64,000 nucleotides of DNA, from positions 1,843,285 to 1,907,284 of the forward strand of contig NZ_CP050804.1 of NCBI RefSeq assembly GCF_012563545.1, given 5' to 3'. This stretch comes from Arcanobacterium buesumense. Its GTDB lineage: Bacteria > Actinomycetota > Actinomycetes > Actinomycetales > Actinomycetaceae. The position numbers and the translations under genes were made by a program. The notes beneath the pieces were generated by a model. It was not told the origin of the DNA. It ran no database searches and saw nothing but the letters and a program-made list of their open reading frames with translations. This document shows, one piece after another, positions 26,771 to 51,218 of this stretch (position 1 is its first letter; every line of letters begins with the position of its first letter).

Positions 26771-26890
26771 CCGATTAGCCCGGTTAGTGTGAACCGTCAT
26801 CCCCTGCCAGCAGGGAACCCTACACAAAATCTCGCCAGACGGGACAGCAGTACTCTATATGATACTGCTGTGCCGAATCCCGAGATTTTG
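26771..26890. repeat. Copy A of a dispersed palindromic repeat family. The core runs 26824-26890 (aaaatctcg ... nested hairpin ... cgagattttg). Its upstream arm shares cccgattagcccggttag with copy D.
   Basis: Direct comparison with copies at 46605, 48795 and 51153. Confidence 0.7.
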
Positions 26891-27017
26891 CGCGCGTCAA
26901 ATTACTGGATTTAGCTCACAGCTTGGTAGGGATGCATTCTCTACCACGCTGTGTCTATATTTAGCAATGGCGACGATACGCGTGTATCACTTAAGCGAGA
27001 CTATGAAGGAGCTAGCT

Positions 27018-27515
27018 ATGACTGAGCAGACCTCAAACCCAGTAACCCCTGTTAAGCCTCCCTATATCGACCAGGTTCTTCCGGATGTTTATAACGCGAT
27101 GGAGGGTGTCGCGGTGGCATTAGGTAAGGCCTATGATGATGTCGACCTTCCGCGCACTCTTGTTGAGCTTGCTTATTTGCGGGCTTCGCAGCTCAATGGG
27201 TGCGCAACGTGCTTGTCTGTTCATGTACCGCGGGCATTGCAGGCCGGAGTTTCGCAGTGTCAGATCGACATGTTGCCGGCATGGCGTCACTCTCAGCGGG
27301 TATTTTCTGATCAGGAGATCATGGCGATCCGGTTAGCGGAAACAATTACTCGGCTTCCGGAAGATGCTGATTACAGTGCGCTAATCGGTGAAGCACTATC
27401 GGTTTTCACTAAAGAACAGCTTGTCGCTTTGGAGTGGGGAATTATCTCCATTAATGCTTTTAACCGGGTGTCAGTGGTGTCCCAACACCCAACTCGGAAG
27501 TACCCAAAGAACTAG
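27018..27515 (+). CDS. Carboxymuconolactone-decarboxylase-family protein (AhpD-like alkylhydroperoxidase core)
   Basis: CxxxH-type motif in LNGCATCLSVH. Size and layout typical of CMD/AhpD. GAAGGAG RBS before the ATG at 27018. Confidence 0.7.
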   Translation: MTEQTSNPVTPVKPPYIDQVLPDVYNAMEGVAVALGKAYDDVDLPRTLVELAYLRASQLNGCATCLSVHVPRALQAGVSQCQIDMLPAWRHSQRVFSDQEIMAIRLAETITRLPEDADYSALIGEALSVFTKEQLVALEWGIISINAFNRVSVVSQHPTRKYPKN

Positions 27516-27774
27516 TCGTTCCTTTTTGGTCCTGCGAGGGCGTACCGTTTTCACTTGTGAAATACGGTACGCCTTTTTATTTGTATCTACTTATTTGTCT
27601 TTATTTTCAATAGGACGTATATTTTCGAGGAAATGACCACAAGATGTTGAATAAACATTCTTTTCGATAATTGACTAATATCTACTATGTTCCTGTATTA
27701 GCAAAAAATTCATTATATTTTAGCGATATATATAGTAACATTTACGCATTTTCCATAAATATAGGGAGTCTGTA

Positions 27775-31157: not shown

Positions 31158-31168
31158 CAATTATCGCC

Positions 31169-32465
31169 GTGCTAGCTGCACTCCACCTTCTTGTTTCTCG
31201 CCTACGAATCGCTGGCCCTGATGAGGCTCTTGTTATTTCCGGTGCTGGGGAATCTGGGGCGATGAAAATTGTTCCTCCGGGTGGCAAAGTTTTTGTTGTG
31301 CCGATTTTGCAGAGCACTTCTAAGATTTCGTTGGAAGCCTACAAGATTCCGTTGTGATTGACTGCCTTGACCGGTCCACAATTCCACTCGATATTGAAGC
31401 AGTGGCAATGGTCAAGATTGGTCGTCGAACTCATCGATTCGGGCTGCATCAGAACGTTTCAATGGCCGTCAAGAAACACTGCCAGACTCCGTCGTCGAAG
31501 TTCTTTCCGGAACTCTACGTTCGGTCGCTGGCCGATTGTCTGTATCGGAACTTATTTCTGATCGTGAAACGTTCTCCAGCCAGGTCGCGCAAGGCGCCGA
31601 AGAAGATCTCGCACGTATGGGCATCCCTGTTGATACGCTACAAATCAAAGATATCTCGGATAAAAACGACTACATCATGGCGTTAAGTGCCCCAGAAGCA
31701 CAACGAGTCTCACGTATTGCGCGCGTAGCAACGGCAGAAAATGAGACGCAGGCAAACGAAGCTGAAGCTGAATCAAAGCGTAAGATCGCTGAACAGAACA
31801 AGGATCTGGAAGTCTACCAGGCCGAAATGAAGCGCATGACGATGGAAGCCCGGGCGATTGCGGATGCGGCTGAGCCGATCGAACGCGCGAAGCAAGAAAA
31901 GCTGATTACGTTGCGCGAGCAGGAAGTCGCCGAGCAAAAGGCTGTTTTGAAGGAACGCGAACTGGAAGCCAGCGTTCGCAAACCGGCTGATGCGGAACGT
32001 TACCGCGTTGAGGTTCAAACTGAGGCTCGCAAGGTTGAGGCCGTGTTGAAGGCAGAAGCCGATGCGGAAGCAATCAAGAAGACCGGTAATGCTCAAGCAG
32101 AAGCAAGCAAGGCTCTTGGTTTGGCGCAGGCAGAAGCAGACAAGGCTCAAGGTTTGGCACGTGCTGAGGCCGACAAGGCTCAAGGTTTGGCAGAAGCAAC
32201 TGCGATGGACGCCAAGGCGTACGAATGCATCGATAAGATGACCGTCATTTCAACCGATGGCACAACCGCCCTCACCCGTGGAGTGACCAACAACGTCAGC
32301 CAGCTCAACGAAGTTATCAACGATCTGTTAGGCATCAACTTGGGAACGCTCACCAGCGGAATCTTGCAATCCACCAAGCTATTCCAAACAGAAGATCATC
32401 AGGCCGAGACAGAGGGCCATGATGCTGAGCTATCCGCCCCGAAAACCGGGCTGGATGAGGAGTAA
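31169..32465 (+). pseudogene. Flotillin-like SPFH (band-7) protein gene disrupted by at least two internal frameshifts plus a probable one at the 5' end
   Basis: Pieces in three frames: LAALHLLVSRLRIAGPDEALVISG..KISLEAYKIPL (frame 2), VIDCLDRSTIPLDIEAVAMVKIG (frame 1), ASERFNGRQETLPDSVVEVLSGTLRSVAGRLSVSELISDRETF... and a long Ala/Glu/Lys coiled coil (frame 0). Together they reconstitute a flotillin (FloT/YuaG-like) layout. Confidence 0.6.
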
Positions 32466-32534: not shown

Positions 32535-32640
32535 TGTAACTGATTTCTCAGTAAGCTCTACCATGTTTGTAGAGTTGAATGCTCCACCGGTTTCCGGTTT
32601 TATATTCGGGCTGTGTTTTTCAACACGGCCCGAATATTTT
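32535..32640 (+). ncRNA. tracrRNA: Putative tracrRNA of the type II-C system: 5' anti-repeat, nexus-like hairpin, two further hairpins, intrinsic terminator ending in TTTTT
   Basis: GUGUAACUGAUUUCUCAGU is complementary (one bulge, a few G:U pairs) to the 5' half of the repeat as transcribed from the minus strand (GCUGGGAGUCAGUUACAUAAC). Hairpins ctctac..gtagag and ccgg..ccgg, terminator attcgggc..gcccgaat + ATATTTTT, directly upstream of cas9. Confidence 0.55.
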
Positions 32641-32655
32641 TGCCATAATAGTGTC

Positions 32656-35600
32656 ATGTCTGATGTTATTAATTTTCGTGTAGGTATTGATGTTGGCACT
32701 AATTCAGTGGGTTTAGCCGCTATAGAAATTGGGCCAGATAATTTGCCGTCGAAAATCCTTAATTCTGTAGTTTTTACGCATGATGGTGGCGTGGATCCAC
32801 AAAATCGCAAAACAGCAGCGACTCGGTTAGCTGTCTCGGGAGTGGCCCGTCGAACACGTAGACTCATTCGACGGAGAAAACAACGTCTCCGTGCTCTTGA
32901 TGTTTTCCTACAATCCCATGGATATCCTTGCCCAAACCTTGAAGAGTTCGACGATCCTCACTTTCCGTGGCATGCTCGCGCTCAACTGGTTTCTGAGCCT
33001 GTTGCACAAGAAGAACTACCTGAACTTTTTTCCGTTGCGATACGGCATATAGCCCGCCATCGGGGATGGCGTAATCCTTATTCACGAGTAGAATCACTGC
33101 ATCTGCCAACACCGCCTTCAGAGGAATTGAATAACCTCAAAAATAGACTGATTGAAGAAACCGGAGTCGTACTAGATGAAGATGCGACACCTGCAGAAAT
33201 AATCACTGAAGTTATCTCAGATATGCGAAAGATACGTGGTCCTGAAGGAATCCTCGGTGGAAAACTTCGCCAGTCAGATAACGCAAATGAGATTCGTAAA
33301 ATTGGCGAAGTTCAAGGATTGGATTCCTCTTTTATTAATGACGTTATTGATCATGTGTTCGCTGCCGAATCTCCTAAAGGAAGTTCCGCAAAACGTGCCG
33401 GGAAGGATGAACTTCCAGGCCAGCACGACAAGTTCCGTGCCGAAAAGGCGCATCCTGCATTCCAGGAGTTCCGAATTGTTTCAGTAGTAGCAAATCTACG
33501 TATCAAAGATCTTGAGACAGGAAGTATCCGTAAGCTTACCCGCGATGAGATGGATACAGTTGTTACATATTTAATGAATGCTTCTGCTGAAGATTCTGTT
33601 ACATGGGATGACGTTGCTACCAAATTAGAGATTTCTAGAGATTGTTTATCTGGAACAGCTTCACCTGGCCCAGATGGTGATCGCCCTTATTTGATCCCAC
33701 CAACTAACACAACAAATCAACGCATACTTGAGTCTAAGCTAAAACCGCTTATTGCTTTTTGGAAGAATGCAGATCTAGATACTCGGTCTACACTGATTAA
33801 CGAGATGTCGAATTCATCAGAGATTACCGATGATTCCCCAGGAGCAGAAGAAGTTCATGACTTCTTGACTTCTTTAGCAGACACAGAATTAGAAAAACTA
33901 TCAACAATTAGTCTTCCCGCCGGAAGAGCGGCTTATTCGGTAGATTCACTTCAACGCTTGTCTCGGCGGATGCTTAACGATGGCGTTGATCTTTTCACCG
34001 CACGCAAATTAGAGTTTGATGTGCCTGATGATTGGCGCCCATCAGCTGCCCCTATAGGCGATCCAGTTGGCAATCCTGGAGTTGATAGAGTTCTTAAAAT
34101 TGTTAACCGCTGGTTAATGAATGTTACCGACAAATGGGGAGTTCCAGCCACAGTAAATATCGAGCATATTCGCGGTGGATTTGGTTCCGAAGCTATGGCT
34201 CGTGAATATGAACGTGAAGTTGGACAGCGCTTCAAGCGCAATCAAATGATTATCGCCAAAATACAAAAAGATAATGACATTAGTGGACCTGTCCGTTCCG
34301 CAGATATTACCCGCTACTTGGCCGTTAAGCGCCAAAATGGGGCATGCGCGTATTGTGGTACAACTATTTCTCTGGGAACTTGCGAAATGGATCATATTGT
34401 TCCACGAAAGGGACAAGGCTCTACAAATAGTCGATCCAATTTATTGGCTACCTGCCGTTCTTGTAACCATAGCAAGGGAAATAGGTTGTTTAACTTATGG
34501 GCTAAAGAACAGAACAACCCTAATATCTCATTTGAAAAAGCAAAGGATAGAATCACGTTCTGGATTAAGGATGACGGCTTATCACCAAAACAATGGAACC
34601 AGTTTAAGCGTGATATCATTATGCGACTTGGTCGAGTTACCGAAGATGACGAACTTGATTCACGCTCTATCGAATCAGTTGCTTGGATGGCGAGAGAGCT
34701 TCGCCATCGTATTGAGTCTCATTATTTGTCTACAGGTTCCGATACAAAAGTTAACGTTTTTAAGGGAATGATAACGTCAGAAGCTCGCAAGGCTTCTGGC
34801 TTTGAAATGCAAGTAGAGATGATAGGCGATCGTGGAAAAACACGATTGGATCGACGTCATCATGCTATGGATGCTTGCACTATCGCACTAATGTCTCCTT
34901 ATGTTGCACAGGTGTTGGCTGAGCGCATTAATTTACGAGAGTACCAGCAACTTACTCGTGAACGATTCACCTGGAAAGAGTACCGAGGAAAGGATGAAAC
35001 TCATCGTATTTCCTATGGTAAGTGGCTTAACTCTATGAATCGTCTGTTAGTTCTGTTCAACGAGGCACTGCGCTCTGATTCGATTCCAATTATGGAAGAT
35101 CTTCGTTTACGTCTTGGAAATGGTACTGCTCATGATGCCACTATCCATAAGTTTGGCAAGAAACGCCTTGGTGACGCATGGTCATTCGAAGATATCGACA
35201 AGGCTTCAACCCCACAAATGTGGCTAGCATTAACTCGTTGTTCTGATTTTGACCAAAAGGATGGTCTTCCAGAAAATCCTGAGCGAACTATACGAGTCAA
35301 AGATGTCTACTATACTGCTGATGATGAACTGGAGTTGTTCCGAACTAAGGCAGCACTACTTTCGGTACGCGGAGGTTATGCAGAAATTGGTAATACTATT
35401 CACCATGCTCGCATTTACCGTATCAACGGAAAGAAGATCTCCTATGCGATGGTACGAGTTTTCGCAGTAGATCTTCATAAACACCGCCATGAGGATTTAT
35501 TTAATGTTGTCCTTCCTCCGGAATCTATTTCAATAAGAACTGCTGCGCCAAAAATTAAGCAGGCATTGGCTGATGGAACTGCTGAGTATCTTGGTTGGGT

Positions 35601-35940
35601 TGTTGCTGGGGATGAAATTGAAATCATTCCGTCAGATCCTAAGGCCTTCGCCAAAGGCGCTATAGGTGAATTATTTGAGGATTTCCCTGGGTTGACACGT
35701 TTTAAGCTAGTTGGATTCGACTCTCCTTCAAAACTACGTTTGCGACCAGTCAAGCTTTCTAGCGAAGGCCTCAATGACAACTTTACTTCAGGTAGCCACG
35801 ACATTATTGCTAAAGCTGGGTGGCGTCCAGAAATCAATGTCGTATTTAGCAAAGCTCAAGTACGCGTCATCCGAAGAACTACTTTAGGAAACATTCGGAA
35901 TACCAGTAGTTCACATCTTCCATCATCATGGCAGGTCTAA
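32656..35940 (+). CDS. cas9: Type II-C CRISPR-associated endonuclease Cas9 (compact, about 1094 aa)
   Basis: RuvC-I GIDVGTNSVGLA, RuvC-II NIEHIRGG, HNH DHIVPRKGQGSTNSRSNLLATCRSCNHSKGN, RuvC-III HHAMDACTIAL. Followed by cas1-cas2. Start placed at MSDVINF. The longer ORF from 32563 would overlap the tracrRNA. Confidence 0.95.
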   Translation: MSDVINFRVGIDVGTNSVGLAAIEIGPDNLPSKILNSVVFTHDGGVDPQNRKTAATRLAVSGVARRTRRLIRRRKQRLRALDVFLQSHGYPCPNLEEFDDPHFPWHARAQLVSEPVAQEELPELFSVAIRHIARHRGWRNPYSRVESLHLPTPPSEELNNLKNRLIEETGVVLDEDATPAEIITEVISDMRKIRGPEGILGGKLRQSDNANEIRKIGEVQGLDSSFINDVIDHVFAAESPKGSSAKRAGKDELPGQHDKFRAEKAHPAFQEFRIVSVVANLRIKDLETGSIRKLTRDEMDTVVTYLMNASAEDSVTWDDVATKLEISRDCLSGTASPGPDGDRPYLIPPTNTTNQRILESKLKPLIAFWKNADLDTRSTLINEMSNSSEITDDSPGAEEVHDFLTSLADTELEKLSTISLPAGRAAYSVDSLQRLSRRMLNDGVDLFTARKLEFDVPDDWRPSAAPIGDPVGNPGVDRVLKIVNRWLMNVTDKWGVPATVNIEHIRGGFGSEAMAREYEREVGQRFKRNQMIIAKIQKDNDISGPVRSADITRYLAVKRQNGACAYCGTTISLGTCEMDHIVPRKGQGSTNSRSNLLATCRSCNHSKGNRLFNLWAKEQNNPNISFEKAKDRITFWIKDDGLSPKQWNQFKRDIIMRLGRVTEDDELDSRSIESVAWMARELRHRIESHYLSTGSDTKVNVFKGMITSEARKASGFEMQVEMIGDRGKTRLDRRHHAMDACTIALMSPYVAQVLAERINLREYQQLTRERFTWKEYRGKDETHRISYGKWLNSMNRLLVLFNEALRSDSIPIMEDLRLRLGNGTAHDATIHKFGKKRLGDAWSFEDIDKASTPQMWLALTRCSDFDQKDGLPENPERTIRVKDVYYTADDELELFRTKAALLSVRGGYAEIGNTIHHARIYRINGKKISYAMVRVFAVDLHKHRHEDLFNVVLPPESISIRTAAPKIKQALADGTAEYLGWVVAGDEIEIIPSDPKAFAKGAIGELFEDFPGLTRFKLVGFDSPSKLRLRPVKLSSEGLNDNFTSGSHDIIAKAGWRPEINVVFSKAQVRVIRRTTLGNIRNTSSSHLPSSWQV

Positions 35941-36863
35941 CTACTGAAAGATGGAGGTCCTTGGACTTTAGTCAGTTCAGGGGCTCTATCTCAGCTGTTC
36001 GTGGAGCGTTGTCGGTTAAAAATGATGAATTAGATCTGACTGTCCCAACAGCTGATGTTAGTGTCGTTCTTATTGGCGTTGGCACAAAACTATCTGCCGG
36101 AGCTATGCACCGTCTCTTAGAAGATGATGTTGCAGTTATTTTTTGTGATTGGAAGGGCGTTCCCTATGGTGGTTCTTTTGGATGGAGCGATCATAGCCGA
36201 GTAGGTGCTCGCCATCGTGCCCAAGCTTCTCTCTCGGAGCCAAAAAGAAAATCGACCTGGGCTCGTATCGTAAAGGCAAAAATTTTAGGTCAAGCGGCCG
36301 TGCTTGACTACTGTTCACGTCCCGGGGGCTCCTTACTGCGTAACCTATCAAAAAATGTACGATCTGGTGATACTTCTAATGTTGAAGGTCAAGCGGCAAG
36401 ATCTTATTGGCAATATTTGTGGGGTGATGAAGGATTTAAACGGCAGCCGGGAATACGGGATCAAGTTCTTCCAAGTAACTCAATGCTTGACTACGGTTAT
36501 ACAATTCTTAGAGGTCACGCGATACGGGCGGTTTTTAGCGCAGGTTTATCGCCAACTATTGGGTTGTTTCATCATGGGCGTTCCAATTATTTTGCACTTG
36601 CAGATGACATTATTGAGCCATTTCGCCCTGCGATAGATGCGTGTATCGCATCAGAGTTTTCCGGTGAATCAATTGAAAGTCCTGACATTCGCAGAGCTAT
36701 CGTTGAGGTTGCACATTCCACTTTCGGACAGACTGGGAATTCCATTCCAACTGAAATGACAGCTCTTGCTCAACGTTTAGGACAATTAATCGAAGGGGAT
36801 CCACAGAAGCTATTGGTTAATGTGTGGTCGCCTATTATGACCTTAGGCATCACAGATGAGTAG
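35928..36863 (+). CDS. cas1: CRISPR-associated endonuclease Cas1 (type II)
   Basis: Conserved Cas1 blocks (..LDYGYTILRG.., acidic C-terminal region). Start overlaps the cas9 stop. Confidence 0.9.
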   Translation: MAGLTTERWRSLDFSQFRGSISAVRGALSVKNDELDLTVPTADVSVVLIGVGTKLSAGAMHRLLEDDVAVIFCDWKGVPYGGSFGWSDHSRVGARHRAQASLSEPKRKSTWARIVKAKILGQAAVLDYCSRPGGSLLRNLSKNVRSGDTSNVEGQAARSYWQYLWGDEGFKRQPGIRDQVLPSNSMLDYGYTILRGHAIRAVFSAGLSPTIGLFHHGRSNYFALADDIIEPFRPAIDACIASEFSGESIESPDIRRAIVEVAHSTFGQTGNSIPTEMTALAQRLGQLIEGDPQKLLVNVWSPIMTLGITDE

Positions 36864-37176
36864 TGATCCCATGTGGTGTCTTGTAATGTTTGACTTACCA
36901 ACGAAAACAGCTTCACAAAAACGTGAGTATTCGTCATTTCGAAATTATTTGTTAGATATTGGTTTTTCTCGTGTGCAATATAGTGTTTACGTACACTACT
37001 CCCCCACAGGGCTTATTGGTACTCGTCTAGTCAAGGGAATCAAAGCTAATCTTCCGCCTGGTGGCGAGGTTAGGATTGTTCACATCAGCGATAGACAATG
37101 GTCCAAAGCATTTCGTTTTGCTAATGCAATTGAAGAAAAACCAGAAGAAGCTCCCCAGCAATTAATGATTTTTTAG
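36856..37176 (+). CDS. cas2: CRISPR-associated endoribonuclease Cas2
   Basis: About 100 aa. N-terminal LVMFDLP pattern typical of Cas2. Overlaps the cas1 stop. Confidence 0.85.
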   Translation: MSSDPMWCLVMFDLPTKTASQKREYSSFRNYLLDIGFSRVQYSVYVHYSPTGLIGTRLVKGIKANLPPGGEVRIVHISDRQWSKAFRFANAIEEKPEEAPQQLMIF

Positions 37177-37226
37177 TGTTTGGGGCACCATTTTTTGTTG
37201 AAATAGTGCCCCAAACACTAACTCCT

Positions 37227-38030
37227 TAAGTCTATCAAGGAGTTATGTAACTGACTCCCAGCCCTCGATTTTAGCTGCTCTGGCATCGTCTAAGTCTATC
37301 AAGGAGTTATGTAACTGACTCCCAGCCCTGAACAGCTCCATGCGAATACTCGATTAAGTCTATCAAGGAGTTATGTAACTGACTCCCAGCACGCCACCCT
37401 GGCTTACTGAACGTGCCGTAAGTCTATCAAGGAGTTATGTAACTGACTCCCAGCGCTGCGGCGCGAACCAGAAGCAGAAGCTTAAGTCTATCAAGGAGTT
37501 ATGTAACTGACTCCCAGCCTGGCCTTGCACTTGTTGCATTTCGATCTAAGTCTATCAAGGAGTTATGTAACTGACTCCCAGCCGCGGTATCTGGGAAATC
37601 CCGGACGTTGTAAGTCTATCAAGGAGTTATGTAACTGACTCCCAGCCTAACGATAACAGGATCGGCAAAGCCCATAAGTCTATCAAGGAGTTATGTAACT
37701 GACTCCCAGCCACTCTTTCAGGCATCGCACAAAAGTTCTAAGTCTATCAAGGAGTTATGTAACTGACTCCCAGCTAGAAGAAGCTATCGAACAGATTGGC
37801 GCTAAGTCTATCAAGGAGTTATGTAACTGACTCCCAGCGGCGAAAATAGTTAGGTTTACAGCGTCTTAAGTCTATCAAGGAGTTATGTAACTGACTCCCA
37901 GCCTATTCTAGGGGTTCCACGCGTGATACTTAAGTCTATCAAGGAGTTATGTAACTGACTCCCAGCAACCGCAACAAATCAACGAAAAGGCGCGTAAGCC
38001 CCTTAAGGAATTACGCAGCCAGATCCCAAC
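37227..38030. CRISPR. CRISPR array: 12 identical 36-nt repeats (taagtctatcaaggagttatgtaactgactcccagc) plus one degenerate terminal repeat (37995-38030), 12 spacers of 28 nt, period 64. It is probably transcribed on the minus strand.
   Basis: Repeat positions counted directly: 37227, 37291, 37355, 37419, 37483, 37547, 37611, 37675, 37739, 37803, 37867, 37931, and degenerate at 37995. Confidence 0.95.
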
Positions 38031-42216: not shown

Positions 42217-42350
42217 ATTTACTCCCTCATAACAGGTACTCACGGCAAGGTATAAGCATCCCTCAGCTGTGCCAGTGGAACGATCAGCGACTGGCTTGGA
42301 GAGTCCACGATGACACTCCACAACTGCAAAAATCGTAGCACAAAATAAAC

Positions 42351-43103
42351 CTATGCTTCGTCGTCGAAATCAGCCTCTTCGCTATCAACTTTCACATGTA
42401 ACGGATCGTCAAGGTTGTCCGGAGGAGGAAGAACACACTGCCGAATCCCATCCACATGTTCACTTAGACTTGGAGCGATTTTGGCCCACATCGGATCAAG
42501 AATAAAGTCTATTCCCGACCGTCGAGCATGCTTAGCAGCAGGCACAAAATCAGAATCTCCCGAAATCATAATAATTTGATTGGCAAACTGTCGTTCAGCA
42601 AGAGAGGCAATATCAAGTCCAATTCTCATATCAACATCCTTTTGCACAATATCAAGCTCGAAATCTCTCTCAGATAAGTCTTCGATAGCTATTCTGCCTG
42701 CAAGTAACTTTTTTAGGATTACAGGTCTTAGTCGATAACCACTCTGTGTTTCCAGCTCTTCCCCTAGACGAAGAGCTACTTTTCGTTTCTTCGTAAGTTC
42801 TTCGAAAAAGTTTGTACTCCATCGGTACTTGTCAGTTTTGCGAAGATCAACTTGTTTCTTTAAAAGCGGATGATAAAAAACTTTATCCGACGGCGGGCAG
42901 TCATAGTAAAAAATTCGGTAAAGACTGCTACGAGATTTGGATATGTGCCGGTGGCAATATTTCAAAAGTTCATCTGCACGATCTTTTTCCGTCTTATCGC
43001 CAAAAAGCGAATAAGCCCTTCTTCGATAAAAGCCACCATCGACCAATATTGCAGTCACGATTGGCCGGGTAGCATGAGTTAACGTTCGCCGTTGTAACCC
43101 CAT
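42351..43103 (-). CDS. NYN-domain (LabA-like) putative ribonuclease
   Basis: N-terminal TAILVDGGFY and a GDSDFVP-type motif (IMISGDSDFVPAAK) characteristic of NYN/PIN-like nucleases. Visibly AT-rich gene. Confidence 0.6.
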   Translation of the reverse strand: MGLQRRTLTHATRPIVTAILVDGGFYRRRAYSLFGDKTEKDRADELLKYCHRHISKSRSSLYRIFYYDCPPSDKVFYHPLLKKQVDLRKTDKYRWSTNFFEELTKKRKVALRLGEELETQSGYRLRPVILKKLLAGRIAIEDLSERDFELDIVQKDVDMRIGLDIASLAERQFANQIIMISGDSDFVPAAKHARRSGIDFILDPMWAKIAPSLSEHVDGIRQCVLPPPDNLDDPLHVKVDSEEADFDDEA

Positions 43104-43244
43104 TGTTACTATCCCATTTCATCAAAGATATGCTCCTGTCATCGGCACTATCCTTATAGGTGGATGGTCAACGGCAGGAGCTCCTTATGCAAATAAGCTA
43201 CTTTATTTCCGCCCCAAAAGCAAGTATTAAGTCCATCTGGTCAA

Positions 43245-44027
43245 CTATTGATTACTCATCCATCGATCCACTGCGTCATAGAACTTTTCCGGCTGATCGC
43301 GGCGCACACAATGGCTCGCCCCAGCGATACGTTCCACAGTAATTGCCGGATTAGTGATACTCGCAAGCCGTTCGACGTCGAACAAAATATTGTCCCTATC
43401 CCCGGCTACAAGCAACGTCGGTACGGATAGTTTGTCAAACAAACTCTCGTCCGTTGTCCCAACCACACCACTTTCAACCAGGCGCATATCCACTTGGGTT
43501 TTCCCCTGCACCCATCCAGCACACTCACACGCCGACCACGCCGGATGCGCGACGCGAATATCCGTCAACGCCTGCCCTGGATCAGCACACAACCCACGCA
43601 CCCCAGCAGCTAACTCCGGCGCAGCTTCCCGATAATGGTCTGCCTGGCAGGCGGTCAAAATCGCCGGATCTTCTAACACCACCCCAGCCACCAAATCCGG
43701 GTAATTCACTGCCACCCACGCGGCAATCGCGCCACCCATCGAATGGCCGATCATCACCACTCGTCCGCTTTCAGCTTGCGCCGCGTATCGTTTGACGACG
43801 GCACTGGCAGCTTCACATGAGGCAGTGAACGGATCGCGCAGATCGTCGTCGGAAAACCGCTCAGAAAAACCGTGCCCTAGAGAATCAACTAATACCACCT
43901 GCCATGTGTCCCCAAAATAAATGGTCAGATCAGCAAGGGATGCTCCGCTATCAGTAACGCCGTGAAAAGCAACAATAATGCCGGTTACGTTCTGTCCAGT
44001 TTCCGTCACAGATAAACGCACGATCAA
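43245..44027 (-). CDS. Alpha/beta-hydrolase fold protein
   Basis: Nucleophile elbow GHSMGG. Typical length. Confidence 0.7.
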   Translation of the reverse strand: MIVRLSVTETGQNVTGIIVAFHGVTDSGASLADLTIYFGDTWQVVLVDSLGHGFSERFSDDDLRDPFTASCEAASAVVKRYAAQAESGRVVMIGHSMGGAIAAWVAVNYPDLVAGVVLEDPAILTACQADHYREAAPELAAGVRGLCADPGQALTDIRVAHPAWSACECAGWVQGKTQVDMRLVESGVVGTTDESLFDKLSVPTLLVAGDRDNILFDVERLASITNPAITVERIAGASHCVRRDQPEKFYDAVDRWMSNQ

Positions 44028-44075
44028 TCCTTAAATACCAGCACGACTTACGCCGCACATATTACTCGCCCCCGA

Positions 44076-44501
44076 TTACCCGTGCCAGGCATACGTGAGC
44101 AGTTCGCGCAAAACCGCACGATCGACGTCGGCAAGCGAAGCAAATGAAATACACGCTCGGCCACAATGAACATTGCCTAGACGGGTCGAAAATTCTTCAT
44201 AATAGCTCGCATAGTGTCGCAAATATAGAAAGAGACGATCGGGACGTGCCGCGAAGCCGATTTCTAGACCGTCGCACAGGCAGTCGGGTTTTGCACCGGG
44301 ATTCGTTTCCCCATAGCCGACGATAGCCGGCCCCCACATGATGGGTTCGTGGCCGGTAACGTCGCAAAAAATATGGGCGAGTTCGGCGGCATCAGGGGCG
44401 ATTGTTTCGGGGAGTCGGGCAAGAAATTCGGGGACGGTAACCGGCTTGCCAAATGAGCAAGCTGGTCCGATTCGCATCCACTCCCCCTTGCCATACGTCA
44501 T
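44076..44501 (-). CDS. DUF1801 (YdhG-like) domain protein
   Basis: Small cytosolic protein with a pattern reminiscent of DUF1801. Start placed at MTYGKGEW. Weak assignment. Confidence 0.4.
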   Translation of the reverse strand: MTYGKGEWMRIGPACSFGKPVTVPEFLARLPETIAPDAAELAHIFCDVTGHEPIMWGPAIVGYGETNPGAKPDCLCDGLEIGFAARPDRLFLYLRHYASYYEEFSTRLGNVHCGRACISFASLADVDRAVLRELLTYAWHG

Positions 44502-44709
44502 TGAATGATCGCCAGATACCTTCCATCGTTTCATAGGTAGCCCTAATTTGCTCGTTCTCAACAATAGTCACGTTATAGCATTTTGCAACTAATCAGATGT
44601 ATGACCTTTAATAACTTTCCTAAAATCAGTACCAAAGTCCTATGATGTGGGTTACAGTTTTCCTATGACGACCTGCTAGCACTCCTTAAGACAAAAACTG
44701 GAGGACCCC

Positions 44710-46266
44710 ATGCGCACCCCAATCACCCACAAAAGCACCGCCATTTCCGCAGGCTCACAAGCCCAACCCGAAATTGGAAATACGCTCATCCGCCACTTCC
44801 TTCCCGTGGTCGGCGGACTCCTCCTAGGAGCACTCATCTACTTCATCTTCCCAGACGCCATCTCCGACCAGCTACGCGAAACATTCGCCGCCAAAGACAT
44901 GACTGTTACCCGGCACGATCTCGCCATCACCGCCGCGATCGCCGTCGTCATGGGCCTGTGGTGGATGACCGAAGCAATACCCCTGCCCGCAACCGCACTC
45001 CTCCCACTTATTGCGTTCCCGGCGTTCGACGTCGTCCCCATCAAAGCCGCGGCCGCGCCCTACGCTTCAGACACCATCTTCCTCTTCATGGGTGGATTCT
45101 TCCTCGCACTCACCATGCAACGTTGGAACCTGCAACGCCGCATCGCCCTTATCACGGTACTACTCGTTGGCACCCGCCCAAAGCGCCTCATCCTCGGCTT
45201 CATGATCGCCACCGGCTTCCTCTCCATGTGGGTATCAAACACCGCCACCGCCGTGATGATGCTGCCGATCGGCCTGTCAATCTTGAACACAGTTGGGAAC
45301 GTTTCCGACGACGGCGCCAACCCCACCTTGCGCTACCCGAAATTCGCGACCGCTCTCATGCTCGGAATCGCCTACTCAGCTTCAATTGCTTCTCTATCCA
45401 CCCTGATCGGAACCCCGCCGAACGTTCTCCTACGCGCCTACCTCCAAGAAACCCACGGAATTACCTTGAGTTTTGGACAGTGGATGCTCTTCGCTGCGCC
45501 AATGGCATGGACGTTCCTACTTGTCGCATGGGCAGTGCTGGTTCGCATCTACAAGCCAGAAATTGACGAGATTCCTGGCGGAAAAGCAATTATTCAGCGC
45601 GAACTTGCTGCGATGGGCAAGATGACAGTGCAAGAAATAATGGTAGGTGTGATTTTTGTTGGCGCCGGATTGGCGTGGATTTTCCTGCCGGTCATCTGGC
45701 CTGAAACTCCGATTAACGATTCCGGCATCGCCATGATCGTTTCCCTACTGCTCTTCGTGACGCCAGCTAAGCCGAAACAAGGCATCGCATTACTGGATTG
45801 GGATACTGCGAAAGATATTCCATGGGACATCCTAATTCTGTTCGGTGGCGGGTTATCGCTTTCCGCCGCGTTCGGCTCATCCGGCCTGTCACTGTGGATC
45901 GGCGATCACGCCCAAATCCTCGCCGGCCTGCCGTTGGTAGTTATCGTGGCGATCGTTACCGCGCTCGTCATCGGCCTGACCGAAATGACCTCCAACACTG
46001 CCACCGCGGCCGCCTTTTTACCGATCATCGGCGCGGTAGCAATCGGTATGGGCGCACCTGTTGAAGCACTCGTCATTCCAGTGGCATTGGCGGCGACATG
46101 CGCCTTCATGTTGCCGGTAGCCACCCCGCCAAACGCAATTGCCTACGGTTCTGGATTCATCAAGATCCGCCAGATGATGAAGGCCGGTATGCGGCTGAAC
46201 ATCATCGGCATCGCCTTAATCACCGTGTTCACAGTATGGGTTGGATCGCTGATTTTCGGCTACTAA
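44710..46266 (+). CDS. DASS/SLC13-family sodium-coupled anion (di/tricarboxylate or sulfate) symporter
   Basis: Duplicated hairpin-loop motifs GTPPNVLL and ATPPNAIAYGSG. About 14 TM helices. Confidence 0.8.
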   Translation: MRTPITHKSTAISAGSQAQPEIGNTLIRHFLPVVGGLLLGALIYFIFPDAISDQLRETFAAKDMTVTRHDLAITAAIAVVMGLWWMTEAIPLPATALLPLIAFPAFDVVPIKAAAAPYASDTIFLFMGGFFLALTMQRWNLQRRIALITVLLVGTRPKRLILGFMIATGFLSMWVSNTATAVMMLPIGLSILNTVGNVSDDGANPTLRYPKFATALMLGIAYSASIASLSTLIGTPPNVLLRAYLQETHGITLSFGQWMLFAAPMAWTFLLVAWAVLVRIYKPEIDEIPGGKAIIQRELAAMGKMTVQEIMVGVIFVGAGLAWIFLPVIWPETPINDSGIAMIVSLLLFVTPAKPKQGIALLDWDTAKDIPWDILILFGGGLSLSAAFGSSGLSLWIGDHAQILAGLPLVVIVAIVTALVIGLTEMTSNTATAAAFLPIIGAVAIGMGAPVEALVIPVALAATCAFMLPVATPPNAIAYGSGFIKIRQMMKAGMRLNIIGIALITVFTVWVGSLIFGY

Positions 46267-46394
46267 TAGCGGTTTGGGCAGCGGCCGCGGGTCGCTGCCC
46301 ACCGGACACCTAACTAAGTGTTTCCTACACCACGTTTTTTAGTTAGCATCTTGGCGAAAATCGTTGTAAGCTAGAGGGCGTTCCAACGAACACT

Positions 46395-46467
<73 letters not shown>

Positions 46468-46604
46468 CTCTTCGGCCCAGTGGTGAATTATCCTGCTGGG
46501 TCGATTTTTATGCCGGTTGTACCCAGCCGGTTGCTAGTTGATTGCCTGCTAGTTGCGGTTGCCGCCAGCCGGGTGTAGCCACTGGGCCTAGTTGGTTGCC
46601 CGGC

Positions 46605-46671
46605 AAAAAATCTCGGGATTCGGCACAGCAGTGCTCTATATGGCACTGCTGTGCCGCTGGGCGAGATTTTG
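46605..46671. repeat. Copy B of the dispersed palindromic repeat family
   Basis: caaaaaatctcgggattcggcacagcagtgctctatatggcactgctgtgccgctgggcgagattttg. Confidence 0.7.
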
Positions 46672-46736
46672 TACGAGTACCTATGATCAGGTCTAGGTAG
46701 ATGGATAGGTTTGCTACTTTAATGAGAAGAAACTAG

Positions 46737-48530
46737 CTATTCCGTATTATCTTCAACCACATAATACTTGGTATCTCGGACACCCCAGCCACCAACCTGA
46801 GTAATTAGCCCAGCCTCTCGCATAAGTTTTATCGCATACCTTACTTGACCTTCTGATAAGCCTGTCTGCTGTACTAATTCCTCGAAAGTCATTCCCTTAC
46901 TGACACTACGTAAAGCCCGCACAATAACTGGGCCATTCTTTGTAACCCGGCGACTATTAGCAACTATGTCTGGCATATCTGCATTTAGTCCACTGTGTAC
47001 CGAACTCACTGAGGCCACCTTATCCTGCGAATGAAGGTTAACAATCAACTGCTCCACTAGGCCATATACAGCAGTTTTCCCTCCGTCATCAGCTAGAACA
47101 ATCATGTTAAATTCAATTAGACGGCGCAGTACACGATCTACTTCGGCTAGAGAGATGGGTGCAAATTCTTTCAATATCTGCATACGCGATATTTTTTGAC
47201 CGTGTCGCATTTTCACAAGTAACAATTTCTCAGTGGCAGTCAAAGTTTCATTTCCAGCCACCTCAGCTAACCATTCCGCTTCTTCTGACGAAAATACTGA
47301 CTTAGCGTACAAAATTGCAGTAAATTGAACTCCCGTATCTTGTAGAGATGGCTTGGGAAGCAGTGCTTGCCTAGTTACACGGAATACTTCTTGGACTCCC
47401 GAGCCTTCTCCTTCAATGACATTATTGCCAGATTCAGAGTGAATTTTCTTAGCCAGATCATAAAGCCTAGGGTTCACCGCATTTTTTGCTAAAGTATAGC
47501 TTTGAAGTTGTTCCACTGAAACTCCACGTAAACCACCCGGGTTAGAAATAACCAACCTGTCCTCACGTAGCCGTATTTCAACCCACTTACCTTCTGTGTT
47601 TGGACTTAGATCTCGATGAACTAAAGCGTTGGCAATGAGCTCACGAACTGCAACTAGTGGATAAACACATTCATCACGCATATTTCCATCAGAAGAATAG
47701 CGACTTTGCCGTGGCGCATTTGCCTCAACCCACGCTAACGCATCTTCAAGCAAATCCGGCAAAGCACCATCAAAATCCCGCCTATTTCGCGAGCGCACAC
47801 CAGCTTCACGCGACGACAAAGTTACAGCAGCAGTTATCCGCAATTGTGGAGCTTTAGCTTGTGGGAAAACACCCAAAGCATAAAGTCCTGCCAATGTTAA
47901 TTGGCCTTCTTCTGTAACAATGTTAAGCATATGCAATAAAGTTTGATCATCCCCAACTTTAGCTAAGCGAGCACTAGACGCACGAATTTCAGAAAGAAAA
48001 TTCTTGATTCTGCCAGAGTCTAAATCCTTCACATTCGAATTCGTAACCGGAGCTACATCAAATCGATACTGATCGGTAAGCGATAGCTTTTGAATTTCAA
48101 TGAGAGCTAGATCTGATTCATTCATTCGGAAATCACCGTCTGACTGCCGTAAATATGCAATACCACTAGCCTTAACCGGCCGACACTTTAGCGCAACTGG
48201 AACAACCTCAACAATCAACACGTCTTTGTCATCCACAGTTAATATTTGGTGCTCTAATTGTGGCGCCGGTACAACACGATTTCGTGTCTGCTGAACAACT
48301 TGATCAAAGAGTTCCTGCGCATTTTCCACACCAGTAATAGCAAAATCTTGATTTTCCGCAACACCAAGAATAATGGTGCCACCTTCAGGCATATTTGCGA
48401 AGGCACACACTGTGTTAGAAAGATTATCTGGCAACTCGCTGGCTTGTTTTACTTCAATATCCGTCGTATCTCGACTATATTTCCTAAAGTCATTGAGACG
48501 ATTTTCTAACTCTTGCACTGTCCATCTCAT
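46737..48530 (-). CDS. Schlafen-like AlbA_2 (divergent AAA_4) + HATPase_c_4 + winged-helix protein (putative ATP-dependent DNA-binding regulator, often annotated RecG-like)
   Basis: N-terminal AlbA_2-like block (IEVKQASELPDNLSNTVCAFANMPEGGTIILGV). Central HATPase_c_4-like block (RELIANALVHRDL...LVISNPGGL). C-terminal HTH-like segments. Confidence 0.6.
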   Translation of the reverse strand: MRWTVQELENRLNDFRKYSRDTTDIEVKQASELPDNLSNTVCAFANMPEGGTIILGVAENQDFAITGVENAQELFDQVVQQTRNRVVPAPQLEHQILTVDDKDVLIVEVVPVALKCRPVKASGIAYLRQSDGDFRMNESDLALIEIQKLSLTDQYRFDVAPVTNSNVKDLDSGRIKNFLSEIRASSARLAKVGDDQTLLHMLNIVTEEGQLTLAGLYALGVFPQAKAPQLRITAAVTLSSREAGVRSRNRRDFDGALPDLLEDALAWVEANAPRQSRYSSDGNMRDECVYPLVAVRELIANALVHRDLSPNTEGKWVEIRLREDRLVISNPGGLRGVSVEQLQSYTLAKNAVNPRLYDLAKKIHSESGNNVIEGEGSGVQEVFRVTRQALLPKPSLQDTGVQFTAILYAKSVFSSEEAEWLAEVAGNETLTATEKLLLVKMRHGQKISRMQILKEFAPISLAEVDRVLRRLIEFNMIVLADDGGKTAVYGLVEQLIVNLHSQDKVASVSSVHSGLNADMPDIVANSRRVTKNGPVIVRALRSVSKGMTFEELVQQTGLSEGQVRYAIKLMREAGLITQVGGWGVRDTKYYVVEDNTE

Positions 48531-48794
48531 GCCTTAAGGATATATTTTTCAACTCTAGAGTGCAAGAGCAAAACACTTGCAATATCAGGAAAAAGTGGCG
48601 GTATTGTAGGGCCGTGATGTTTCAGAGTGTAATTACAAAGTAAAATTATCACTCTAGAGTGCGATAGTAGAAATCCACAGTGTAAACTATTGACGCTAAA
48701 GTATAAAAGTTTAAATCTCCTACGTGTCCACACTAGCAGTCTGCGCTCGCCACCAATCTGCGCAAACTAGCCCACACTCACCGGCTGCCCCGTC

Positions 48795-48860
48795 AAAAAT
48801 CTCGGGATTCGGCACAGCAGTGCCGTATAGAGCACTACCCTGCCGCTGGGCGAGATTTTG
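48795..48860. repeat. Copy C of the dispersed palindromic repeat family, 24 nt upstream of murT
   Basis: caaaaatctcgggattcggcacagcagtgccgtatagagcactaccctgccgctgggcgagattttg. Confidence 0.7.
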
Positions 48861-48883
48861 TGCGCGTACAGTAGAATTGCCTC

Positions 48884-50245
48884 ATGACTTTTCTTGGTTT
48901 ACGCAATACTGCTGGCATGATTGCCGGGCATCTTGCTACTACCGCGTCGCGCACGCTAGGCCGTGGCTCGGGCGGCATGATCGGCGGCCGGGTAGCTTCC
49001 CGGATCGCCCCGAATCTCCTGCGCGATTTAACCCAGCGCATGAAAGTAGTCGTCATTACAGGTACGAACGGTAAATCCACCACCACGCGAATGATCGCGG
49101 AGGCAGTCACCGCCGATGGCCTGAATGTGGCAACCAATCGTGGCGGGGACAATATGCTCCCCGGCGTTTTAGCTGCCGTCCTGCAGGATCCGAAAGCTGA
49201 TGTCGCCGTCCTCGAAGTGGATGAAATGTGGGTGGCGCGCGTAGCTCAAGAAGTTAACCCAGACGTTTTCGTTTTCCTTAATCTGAGCCGGGACCAGCTG
49301 GATCGCGTTGGCGAAATCGCCTCGATCGAACGCCGGTTACGCAGCGCCATCGACGCTCACCCGAACGCTACCGTGATCGCCAACATCGACGATCCACTCA
49401 TGACCTCCGCCGCCTGGGATTCTCATAATCCAGTATGGGTGGCTGCCGGCCAAGGCTGGTCAGGCGATTCGCTCACCTCGCCGCGCACCGGCGGCATCAT
49501 TGTTTATGGCGACGACGAACGAGCCCACACCTCCGATTCACAGGTTCCGCCAGCTTCGGGTCAAGATTCACAGGTTTGGTGGCGGGCCGTTGGTCTTGAT
49601 GCAGACCTCGGCACATCCGAGGCGTCAACCTTTGCGCGCCCCTACCCGGACTGGTCGTGGAGCGTGGCAGAGTCCAACTATCAGCCTGGTGTTCCCATGC
49701 AGGTGCATGGACCAGATGGAACCACGGACGTCGTCGTCAATCTTCCGGGCCGCGCAAATCGTTCCAATGCGAGCCAAGCACTCGCCGCAGCCCATGCGCT
49801 CGGCGTGAACCCGGAGGTCGCCGCTCGCTGTATTGCCGGCGTTTCGTCGGTGGCTGGGCGGTACGCGAACGTGAACATCGATGGGCGAAACGTGCGGTTA
49901 TTGCTGGCGAAAAACCCGGCCGGCTGGCAAGAATCATTAACTATGCTTCGCCCCGGCGCGGCCCTCGTGGTGGGAATCAACGGGCAAGTGGCCGACGGCG
50001 TCGACCTGTCCTGGCTTTGGGATGTCAAATTCTCTCAACTCGCCTCTCGGCAGGTCTGGGCGTGCGGCGAACGCGGCGCCGATCTCAACGTGCGCCTCCA
50101 CTATGCCGGCGTAGCAGCCGATTTCATCGCCGACCCGGTGGACGCCATCCAGGCCACCCCGCCTGGCGATGTTGATGTTCTGCTGAACTACACGTCATTC
50201 CGCGACACCCGCGCAGCATTAAGGAAACGAGGCTATGAGGTATGA
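48884..50245 (+). CDS. murT: Lipid II isoglutaminyl synthase, Mur-ligase-like subunit MurT
   Basis: Mur ligase P-loop GTNGKSTTT. C-terminal DUF1727-like region. Immediately followed by gatD. Confidence 0.8.
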   Translation: MTFLGLRNTAGMIAGHLATTASRTLGRGSGGMIGGRVASRIAPNLLRDLTQRMKVVVITGTNGKSTTTRMIAEAVTADGLNVATNRGGDNMLPGVLAAVLQDPKADVAVLEVDEMWVARVAQEVNPDVFVFLNLSRDQLDRVGEIASIERRLRSAIDAHPNATVIANIDDPLMTSAAWDSHNPVWVAAGQGWSGDSLTSPRTGGIIVYGDDERAHTSDSQVPPASGQDSQVWWRAVGLDADLGTSEASTFARPYPDWSWSVAESNYQPGVPMQVHGPDGTTDVVVNLPGRANRSNASQALAAAHALGVNPEVAARCIAGVSSVAGRYANVNIDGRNVRLLLAKNPAGWQESLTMLRPGAALVVGINGQVADGVDLSWLWDVKFSQLASRQVWACGERGADLNVRLHYAGVAADFIADPVDAIQATPPGDVDVLLNYTSFRDTRAALRKRGYEV

Positions 50246-51060
50246 GTTTACGTATTGGAGTGCTTCTGCCAGAAGTGTTAGGCACATACGGCGATTCGGG
50301 AAACGCTGAGATTTTGGCGTTTCGGGCGCAGGCTCGCGGAATCGATACGCAAATCGTTCACGTAGGTATCGACGAAGCCATCCCGGACTCGCTCGATATT
50401 TACACCCTCGGCGGGGGCGAAGACATTGCCCAAACCATTGCATCTCGCAAACTCGCATCCGATTCTGGGCTAGCCCGCGCGGTGGCTGCTGGCCGGCCAG
50501 TGCTGGCGATTTGTGCCGCCTTGCAGGTGCTCGGCACTTACTATACTGACGCAGACGGCAAGAAAACTGCCGGGGCTGGCCTGCTCGACGTCGTCACTCT
50601 CCCCCAAGGATTGCGCGCGATTGGCGAATTGCGGAGCGAACCTGGGCCGGGGCTGGCTGCCCGCGGGGTAACCGACACGCTGTATGGTTTTGAGAATCAT
50701 GGTGGCGGTACGGCGCTCGGGCCGGATGCTTCGCCTTTTGGGCTGGTCACGTTCGGTACTGGTAATGGCGTTCCGGGTGTGGCACCGGCGCGTACTAACG
50801 ATTCGCGCACGCCCGATCCGAAACTAGTTTTGGCTGGCACGCCTGATGGTTATGTGACTGAGGTTGATGGTCGGCGGATTGACGGCGCAGTGCAAGGATC
50901 GGTTTTTGCTACCTACATGCACGGCCCGGTCTTGGCACGTAACCCGCAGCTGGCAGATATGCTCATTGCCATGGCTACCGGGGATGCACTTGCGCCACTG
51001 GACGTGCCGGGGGTGGCTGATTTGCGCGCCGAGCGCGAGCGGTTTATCGCCGGTCAGTAG
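50242..51060 (+). CDS. gatD: Lipid II isoglutaminyl synthase glutaminase subunit GatD (CobB/CobQ-like glutamine amidotransferase)
   Basis: GATase1-like layout with a conserved Cys in VLAICAALQVLG and a C-terminal His. Translationally coupled to murT. Confidence 0.8.
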   Translation: MSLRIGVLLPEVLGTYGDSGNAEILAFRAQARGIDTQIVHVGIDEAIPDSLDIYTLGGGEDIAQTIASRKLASDSGLARAVAAGRPVLAICAALQVLGTYYTDADGKKTAGAGLLDVVTLPQGLRAIGELRSEPGPGLAARGVTDTLYGFENHGGGTALGPDASPFGLVTFGTGNGVPGVAPARTNDSRTPDPKLVLAGTPDGYVTEVDGRRIDGAVQGSVFATYMHGPVLARNPQLADMLIAMATGDALAPLDVPGVADLRAERERFIAGQ

Positions 51061-51097
51061 CCGGCGTTGGCCCGGGCCCATCACCCCGGTTAACTAG

Positions 51098-51218
51098 CCC
51101 GATTAGCCCGGTTAGCCAGTCCGATTTCCCTGGCCCGCCGGGGATCCCTGCACAAAATCTCGAAATCCAGCACGGTAGCCCGCCATAGACCGCTACCGTT
51201 TCGCTGGGCGAGATTTTG
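51098..51218. repeat. Copy D of the dispersed palindromic repeat family (core 51153-51218). It overlaps the last about 9 codons of the minus-strand methyltransferase gene.
   Basis: cacaaaatctcgaaatccagcacggtagcccgccatagaccgctaccgtttcgctgggcgagattttg, with upstream cccgattagcccggttag as in copy A. Confidence 0.7.

Follow-up and report, generated by a model that had tools for sequence, protein, structure and literature searches.

A palindromic intergenic repeat family of Arcanobacterium buesumense and Arcanobacterium phocae with self-complementary arms that change together

Among the repeats described in bacteria, the closest to the element considered here are the ERIC/IRU elements (127 bp) and the related RU, the REP/REPIN sequences with their RAYT transposases, and the Correia elements (NEMIS) of Neisseria together with other bacterial miniature inverted-repeat transposable elements (MITEs). 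The GTAG super-family of REP/REPIN sequences consists of short stem-loops of which one end is tagged by an unpaired GTAG, and such GTAG REPs have not been reported from Actinobacteria (PMC3733652). The present element is an imperfect palindrome of about 78 nt that recurs in a stretch of 64,000 nucleotides from Arcanobacterium buesumense (contig NZ_CP050804.1, positions 1,843,285 to 1,907,284; hereafter the window). An acyltransferase encoded in the window is 100% identical to an A. buesumense protein, and the window presumably belongs to strain 2701 of this species, from a harbour seal, whose closest relative is A. phocae (PMC7498426). The family is confined to these two species, both bacteria of seals, and was previously undescribed. 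It is on balance probable that it represents a small and old palindromic intergenic repeat, specific to this clade and of the REP/ERIC/MITE kind, with upkeep at the DNA level, a probable incidental function as a weak bidirectional terminator or insulator, and a part as a recombination landmark. The initial annotation of the window had called it a dispersed palindromic, REP- or MITE-like family, which is still the best available label, and further copies exist in related genomes.

The window holds exactly four copies, designated A to D (Table 1). All four had been located in the initial annotation, and direct reading of the sequence, a repeat scan, a pattern search and a covariance-model search agree with it. 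Four stretches of the window, each of 62 nt, fit the pattern AAATCTCG-N(35-60)-CGAGATTT, against an expectation of 0.00 from 100 dinucleotide shuffles, and the repeat scan groups the copies as one 87-nt family that it also lists as inverted pairs. A covariance model built from 15 copies of the repeat and searched with filters off scores the four copies at 78.6-95.5 bits, whereas the next-best match in the window reaches 16.8 bits (E 0.05). The unit extends to ~78 nt because the terminal inverted repeat continues outwards to CCCGCACAAAATCTCG and CGAGATTTTGTGCGGG.

From left to right, the element comprises CACAAAATCTCG, an asymmetric internal loop, an inner stem, a self-complementary CTATAG centre and CGAGATTTTGTG. 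The near-invariant terminal inverted repeats CACAAAATCTCG ... CGAGATTTTGTG are set within an A-tract and a T-tract and measure 13-16 nt, as (CC)CGCACAAAATCTCG and CGAGATTTTGTGCG(GG), with AAATCTCG and CGAGATTT termini that are exact in 14 of the 15 copies; these terminal half-sites are invariant and their spacing is fixed at 46 nt. In the four window copies, the common frame AAAATCTCG ... CGAGATTTTG surrounds a second, inner hairpin. The internal loop reads RRATYC on the left and GCTGGG on the right, an asymmetry that confers polarity, and the inner stem has two mutually compensated forms, CAGCAG/CTGCTG and CGGTAG/CTACCG.

Copy B has the inner arms gcacagcagtgc/gcactgctgtgc and copy D cacggtagc/gctaccgt, as described earlier, and the right arm of copy A is indeed the exact complement of the left arm of B, over 26 nt. 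The core of A is inverted relative to those of B, C and D, and the upstream flank of A is direct with that of D. Copy C is a chimera, with a left half identical to that of B (29 nt) and a right half of the CTACC type. The earlier statement that the stems differ between copies yet stay self-complementary is right overall, with the exception of the plus strand of C, where a CAGCAG-type left arm faces a CTACC-type right arm and three of seven inner pairs are broken.

Self-complementarity is maintained across the family. In an 18-sequence alignment analysed with a fully symmetric structure, 84% of cells are paired, compared with 33-51% when the partners are slid by 1-3 columns, and two-sided changes occur at 19 of 26 pairs. 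The true partners give a covariation score of 0.327, a value reached by none of 500 shuffles, and slid partners one of 0.03-0.12. The strongest conservation is that of the sequence of the termini, above their pairing, and the middle is far less conserved. Mismatches on the element's own strand comprise 26 G·U and 23 A·C, and these near-equal counts mean that no strand is favoured. RNA folds of both strands range from -29 to -46 kcal/mol (z -3 to -10) and are about equal, with -39.1 kcal/mol for copy A (z -6.9), -43.7 for B, -46.2 for D, and for C -29.1 on the plus strand versus -38.9 on the minus strand. The copies also fold stably as DNA (plus strand tested). This pattern fits a DNA palindrome or two-strand element and not a strand-specific RNA. 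Covariation had been taken as a sign that the structure itself is under selection; the pairing is indeed kept, but the mismatch counts do not bear out selection at the RNA level, and covariation in a DNA palindrome is by itself no proof of a selected RNA structure.

The copies occupy orthologous sites in the two species. Window 44520-46675 corresponds to 3-2152 of locus L064 of A. phocae strain 20171 at 87.8% identity, in a block that stops at the right end of B, and window 48796-51223 corresponds to 1064-3464 of locus L020 at 92.6%, in a block that runs from the left end of C to the right end of D. The counterparts of B, C and D in this strain are the orthologues p8, p3 and p4, where p denotes an A. 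phocae copy, and two further A. phocae strains also carry orthologues of the three. Orthologues of B lie at L064:2077-2154 and L083:9906-9983, that of C at L020:1057-1135, and those of D at L020:3388-3465, L083:12286-12363 and L172:3357-3434 (L083 and L172 belong to A. phocae GCA_018913425.1 and GCA_018913325.1, respectively). The termini are 92-100% identical in most orthologous pairs and the flanking DNA 88-93%; the middles of B and C are 65-70% identical to those of their orthologues, and that of D 87-91%. For B the low value arises because its stem is CAGCAG/CTGCTG and that of its orthologue CGGTAG/CTACCG. In its makeup, a B-type left half joined to a CTACC-type right half, copy C bears the signature of inter-copy exchange. 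Symmetrised variants with one internal-loop box on both sides also occur, namely p6 (X...rcX) and p5 (rcY...Y).

More distant members of the genus have palindromes of their own. A relative with a 73% identical murT (locus L081) carries a sister family, with three copies of 77 nt within 21 kb, whose frame ACGAAAAAATCACCCA-CAC-CGGAGATAGG-ATATAT-CCTATCTCCGG-AAAT-TGGGTGATTTTTTCGT is alike in architecture and different in sequence. One of these copies follows tRNA-Arg, at the position of B, and another lies between gatD and the methyltransferase gene, at the position of D, where it is accompanied by a relic copy of the CAGCAG type. A. pinnipediorum has a 76-nt palindrome, GCAAAACCGGGGTATATGGGG...CCCCATATACCCCGGTTTTGT, of like build and other sequence, and at the D position a plain 17-bp hairpin. 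Different long palindromes of Arcanobacterium genomes were seen in L168 (6004-6094, 91 nt) and L079 (8317-8392, 76 nt), the former beginning ~200 nt downstream of a tRNA-Ser(GCT) gene in an intergenic setting like that of copy A. In this genus, long palindromes may repeatedly occur next to tRNA genes.

In a scan for the exact termini in 185,579 species-representative genomes, A. phocae (strain 20171) alone had the genuine family; eight of its matches are exact and one is near, and seven of these copies lie on one 342-kb contig. The A. buesumense genome is not among the matches and is apparently outside that collection. The covariance model recognises 11 copies in the A. phocae loci and three more in another strain. 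Matches in Collinsella were rejected as members, since they share only the 9-10-nt termini and represent one conserved single-copy hairpin, and the remaining matches outside A. phocae are due to chance. Scanning metagenome contigs for the exact termini yielded 82 stretches, none of this family, and a BLAST search of copy D against phage and plasmid collections gave no match. The family is absent at the murT locus of more distant relatives (murT 59-62% identical; L167, L168 and L169). Rfam, which had been suggested as a check, matched only tRNAs in the whole window at gathering score, and at E<=10 within 46300-51400 only generic miRNA-hairpin models, with 18-22 bits against gathering scores of 50-53. 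The comparative genomics of 42 A. phocae strains does not mention repeats (PMC8235330), and a literature search found nothing on Arcanobacterium repeats of this kind, nothing pertinent on MITE or REPIN elements of actinobacteria, and no REP/MITE-type element for Actinomycetaceae.

In build, the element resembles the ERIC/IRU elements and related RU, which are likewise imperfect intergenic palindromes (~80-130 bp) that are often transcribed, form a long hairpin, occur in low to moderate numbers, persist at orthologous sites and have no known transposase of their own. However, there is no sequence similarity, the host here belongs to the Actinomycetota, and the element measures 78 bp, has ~10 copies and ends in terminator-like A/T-tract termini. 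With REP/REPIN sequences it has in common a palindromic extragenic nature, the presence of GTAG/CTAC, an inverted-dimer-like unit folding as one hairpin, species-specific sequence variants, and proposed side roles as terminator or mRNA stabiliser (PMC3733652, PMC3116915). Membership of the GTAG REPs was rejected: GTAG (CACGGTAG) pairs with CTAC in the inner stem of most copies, and the CAGCAG subfamily has no GTAG. The number of copies, 8+1 in the A. phocae genome and 4 in the 64-kb window, is also below the tens to hundreds of REP/REPIN sequences. Among the annotated neighbours in the window and the compared loci, to which all statements on neighbouring genes refer, there is no RAYT/Y1 transposase, and no other transposase or integrase adjoins a copy.

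Correia elements and MITEs resemble the element in their terminal inverted repeats, in their position near gene starts and ends, in having four combinations of end subtypes (here X...Y, rcY...rcX, X...rcX and rcY...Y), in a transcript hairpin that can terminate or be processed, and in copies beside variable regions. The terminal inverted repeats of a MITE are thus present. In contrast to MITEs, no target-site duplication was detected, in that inspection of 13 flanks by eye showed no consistent direct repeat outside the palindrome; no related insertion sequence was found, and the copies are tens of times fewer. The loci examined contain neither empty sites nor an insertion sequence with the ends GCACAAAATCTCG, and the sole polymorphism seen is that between one copy and two copies bracketing an insert. 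The core motifs of integron attC sites, RYYYAAC/GTTRRRY, are absent from the element, which has the termini AAAATCTCG / CGAGATTTT, and no integrase gene is annotated in the window or the compared loci. Because the tests for GTAG REPs, for MITEs (by target duplication) and for attC all failed, the element is placed in the general class of palindromic repeats and in no named family.

The settings of the copies were tallied for 13 copies, with window and A. phocae 20171 orthologues counted separately. The flanking genes are convergent for five of them, tandem for five and divergent for three (C, p2 and p9), a split that is the expectation for random intergenic placement, and 9 of the 13 are within 75 nt of a stop codon. 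The genes around them are ordinary (gyrA, ribonucleotide reductase small subunit, ABC transporters, an alanine symporter, murT-gatD). At three of ~10 independent loci the element is just downstream of a tRNA gene (tRNA-Ser for A, tRNA-Arg for B, tRNA-Ala for p1), and each of these tRNAs has its own hairpin and T-tract terminator ahead of the element; for B, the arrangement of tRNA-Arg with its own hairpin and T-tract recurs in A. phocae. Copy A has the tRNA-Ser(GCT) gene 115 nt upstream and a CMD-family gene (26967-27515) starting 70 nt downstream. Copy B is in a convergent setting, between tRNA-Arg(ACG) on the plus strand and the 3′ end of the Schlafen/AlbA_2 ATPase gene on the minus strand, and copy D separates the convergent gatD (plus) and RNA methyltransferase (minus) genes.

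The earlier description of the copies as sitting at gene ends or near tRNAs does not hold for C, which is found at the start of a gene, in the interval between two divergent genes. As had been noticed, C is just upstream of murT, ending 23 nt short of its ATG (48884). A TAGAAT box is found 6 nt before this ATG (window 48861-48886) and is conserved in A. phocae and A. pinnipediorum. Because the box is so close to the ATG, the murT transcript is probably leaderless, and the sequence suggests that C lies directly upstream of, or across, the -35 position of murT. Copy D overlaps the end of the methyltransferase open reading frame, as also claimed before, and supplies its last 8 to ~10 codons and its stop. 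The tail in the window reads VSRTKSRPAKR, whereas A. phocae 20171 has a shorter ...VLLTRF; in that strain, a 352-aa LPXTG surface-protein gene separates the element from the methyltransferase gene. The extra upstream block reported for A and D is real, and its CCGATTAGCCCGGTTAG is found only beside those two copies. Just upstream of D lies a 22-nt tandem repeat (CCCGGTTAGCCAGTCCGATTAG) of 1.9 units (51085-51126), of which one unit occurs upstream of A (26771-26787) and ~3 units occur in A. phocae L083 (12200-12265), so that the number of units varies.

Table 1. Coordinates of the palindromic element and of the features around it in the window.
Feature	Position	Strand	Remarks
Copy A	26819-26896	-	Covariance model 80.5 bits on -, 59.5 bits on +
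Copy B	46600-46677	+	Covariance model 86.7 bits
Copy C	48789-48866	+	Covariance model 78.6 bits
Copy D	51147-51224	+	Covariance model 95.5 bits
tRNA-Ser(GCT) with own terminator hairpin	26613-26735	+	Hairpin 26704-26735, 14 pairs, T-rich tail; upstream of copy A
Upstream block beside A	26747-26818	+	Holds CCGATTAGCCCGGTTAG and small hairpin CCCTGC-CA-GCAGGG; direct with block beside D
tRNA-Arg(ACG), then own hairpin and T5 tract	46395-46510	+	GGCCCAG...CTGGGTCGATTTTT; upstream of copy B
Schlafen/AlbA_2 + HATPase_c_4 + helix-turn-helix gene	46737-48530	-	Pfam; between direct copies B and C
murT-gatD operon	48884-51060	+	Bracketed by copies C and D
Upstream block beside D	51075-51146	+	Tandem repeat and hairpin CCCTGGC-CC-GCCGGGG
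RNA (uracil-5) methyltransferase-family open reading frame	51193-52419	-	C-terminus ...VLLVSRTKSRPAKR and stop read from copy D

If the element is indeed an old clade-specific repeat of the REP/ERIC/MITE kind, duplication, gene conversion and inversion from arm to arm would preserve its palindromic form and homogenise the copies at the level of the DNA. The copies behave as a DNA-level repeat of this kind and not as a strand-specific RNA gene. They stay at orthologous sites, and the middle turns over fast yet remains self-complementary; arms swap between copies, as in the B-left/GGTAG-right chimera C, and cores flip between the inverted termini, as in A relative to D. The means of spread may have been transposition or recombination. 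The transcript hairpin with its AUUUUGUG tail would most probably act as a weak bidirectional terminator, an insulator or a 3′-end protection between transcription units, and direct copies would be recombination substrates and landmarks at the edges of strain-variable segments.

Several observations weigh against this account. Neither a target-site duplication, nor a clean empty site, nor a partner transposase was found, and mobility is not demonstrated. A number of about 10 copies, counted genome-wide in one A. phocae genome scanned for the exact termini and in loci chosen for holding copies, is low for REP or MITE families, and the GTAG is base-paired inside the stem, unlike the unpaired tag of classical REPs. 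As for the proposed side role in termination, the T-tract is parted from the strong inner stem by an internal loop of 5-6 nt and a closing helix of 4 bp, 3 of the 13 copies lie between divergent genes, the tRNA-adjacent copies follow existing terminators, and a simple terminator scan flags no copy. The structured RNA or terminator role proposed in the initial annotation is accordingly possible and not demonstrated, as no strand is favoured, the scan is negative and the tRNAs are already terminated.

A stronger version of the terminator role, in which the copies are dedicated bidirectional intrinsic terminators, duplicated as modules that are selected to stop transcription from both sides and repetitive only incidentally, is unlikely, though it deserves some weight. 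On either strand the hairpin precedes the AUUUUGUG tail, and 5 of the 8 nt that follow the CUCG...CGAG helix are T. Like known bidirectional Rho-independent terminators, which often lie between convergent genes, the element has an A-tract/hairpin/T-tract layout that is symmetric on both strands. The genome's own terminators use an AAAA...TTTT frame too, as in AAAACCCCGGCAG...CTGCCGGGGTTTT after tRNA-Ser, and AAAATCCCGCGATATATATCGCGGGATTTT in the relative L168 is a terminator of the same layout. The frequent proximity to stop codons (9 of 13), the ordinary 17-bp hairpin at the D position of A. pinnipediorum and a T6 tract in the L081 sister family point the same way. However, the hairpin is much longer than in such terminators, its stem sequence is conserved, and copies occur where they would be needless, as between divergent genes (C, p2 and p9) or directly after pre-existing tRNA terminators (A, B and p1). 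The internal loop that adjoins the T-tract weakens the base of the hairpin. A consensus scan for terminators and promoters flags no copy as a terminator and finds no promoter inside copies; the scan does not call them terminators because the internal loop and the 4-bp helix part the inner stem from the T-tract. Furthermore, the sequence of the termini is invariant in nearly all of 15 copies, a conservation that a terminator does not need, and the distribution over convergent, tandem and divergent settings is that of random placement.

Direct copies also bracket segments that differ between strains. The site between tRNA-Arg and murT exists in three states: a single copy in A. phocae GCA_018913425.1 (L083), two copies around a 2.1-kb Schlafen/AlbA gene in the window and in A. 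phocae GCA_018913325.1 (L172), and two copies around ~7 kb that encode a sugar ABC transporter and glycosidases in strain 20171, whose loci L064 and L020 (8 kb each) are taken to be contiguous as they join in frame. The single copy of L083 aligns with both B and C. The ends of the element are where homology with A. phocae stops, and to the right of D three genomes have three different sequences, namely the element-fused methyltransferase gene, the LPXTG gene with the methyltransferase gene after it, and a kinase/FtsK block. Copies p1 and p2 bracket an ABC-transporter operon, and copies within a cluster have a common orientation. A hipA-like kinase gene (391 aa) and its helix-turn-helix partner, at window 52419-53990, are absent from the otherwise collinear L172 and form a strain-variable toxin-antitoxin-like module.

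From this arrangement it could be argued that the element is an att-like recombination site, a crossover point for the insertion or exchange of segments that leaves a copy at each end of the insert. The alternative states at tRNA-Arg/murT, the alignment of the single copy with both B and C, the three sequences right of D, the operon between p1 and p2, the like orientation within clusters and the position of 3 of ~10 loci just downstream of tRNA genes all agree with such a site. Integron attC sites and the att sites of cis-mobilisable islets are similar in that two stems are parted by an unpaired central loop and topped by a variable apex, direct copies bracket alternative inserts, and tRNA genes are near. 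Even so, this explanation is distinctly unlikely. Neither the inserts nor the genes next to them include an integrase or recombinase, the attC core motifs are absent, and the housekeeping murT-gatD operon is bracketed as well. The duplicated segment can exceed the element: in L172 it measures 116 nt, of which 40 nt are non-element spacer to the left, so that the element does not form its left limit. Identity between A. buesumense and the A. phocae strains is mosaic across the region (80-99% per kb, window 38985-54635), which suggests, on the sequences compared, recombination between the two lineages. Given the L172 duplication and the mosaic identity, ordinary homologous recombination between direct repeats, by deletion or of the Campbell type, can explain the same pattern. 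Within the region, murT-gatD of one A. phocae strain is 95.2% identical to the window and 92.8% to another A. phocae strain.

A second, unrelated palindromic repeat of 79 nt (GGGGTTATAGCGCAAAC...GTTTGCACTATAACCCC) is present in the window as two direct copies (11951-12029 and 13059-13137; 91% identical) that bracket a gene for a 295-aa protein with a REase_MTES_1575 domain (12196-13083). In A. phocae L170, the orthologous gene is bracketed likewise (3770-3841 and 4796-4867); there, the arms are changed compensatorily and the core is inverted between the two copies, which are 97% identical as complements compared with 82% when read directly. Both palindromic families might conceivably be sites of an undescribed hairpin-directed gene-insertion system in Actinomycetaceae, an idea that we hold to be quite improbable. 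Cargo such as the Schlafen/AlbA gene, the 7-kb sugar operon, the LPXTG gene or the kinase/FtsK block would enter directly right of a copy and duplicate it, by means of a recombinase encoded elsewhere or of replication template-switching at the hairpin. The system would be a functional analogue of integron attC recombination, unrelated to it.

A strand-specific structured RNA, either non-coding or cis-regulatory as in a murT 5′-leader, would be in keeping with the strong folds (z down to -10), the compensatory changes and the position of C 23 nt upstream of murT. It is very improbable, and a strand-specific RNA was rejected on the G·U and A·C counts and the two-strand folding: both strands fold equally well, the orientation of the copies varies, their gene contexts are of all kinds and the genes beside them are functionally unrelated, Rfam offers only generic hairpin models up to E<=10, and since murT is probably leaderless the element would lie upstream of its start site. 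Operators for a regulator that binds DNA as a dimer, whose arms co-vary as one protein binds both, would suit the invariant terminal half-sites at a fixed 46-nt spacing, the ~10 sites per genome and the co-ordinately different termini of the sister species, but hardly a 78-bp site with a fast-evolving self-complementary middle unlike known operators, neighbours without common function (gyrA, nrdF-like, murT, transporters) and many copies at gene 3′ ends, and have very little to recommend them.

Elsewhere, the window contains a type II CRISPR-Cas locus (32563-38030) with cas9 (1125 aa, 32563-35940), cas1 (35928-36863), cas2 (36856-37176) and an array (37227-38030) of 12 copies of a 36-nt repeat with 28-nt spacers, the last repeat being degenerate. 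Just upstream of cas9, an open reading frame (31536-32465) includes a 33-nt in-frame tandem repeat of 2.9 copies (32097-32192).

The family adds a repeat to those of the Actinomycetaceae, although the kind of element is already well known in bacteria. It offers a case in which compensatory change in a palindromic DNA repeat does not amount to evidence for a selected RNA structure. In A. buesumense, the element has rewritten the C-terminus of a methyltransferase and lies directly upstream of the essential murT-gatD operon. If the reading of the copies as insertion sites were true, for which present support is thin, they would represent a new route of gene acquisition. The copies mark the boundaries of strain-variable segments in a veterinary pathogen, and are thus of use for typing and pan-genome analysis.

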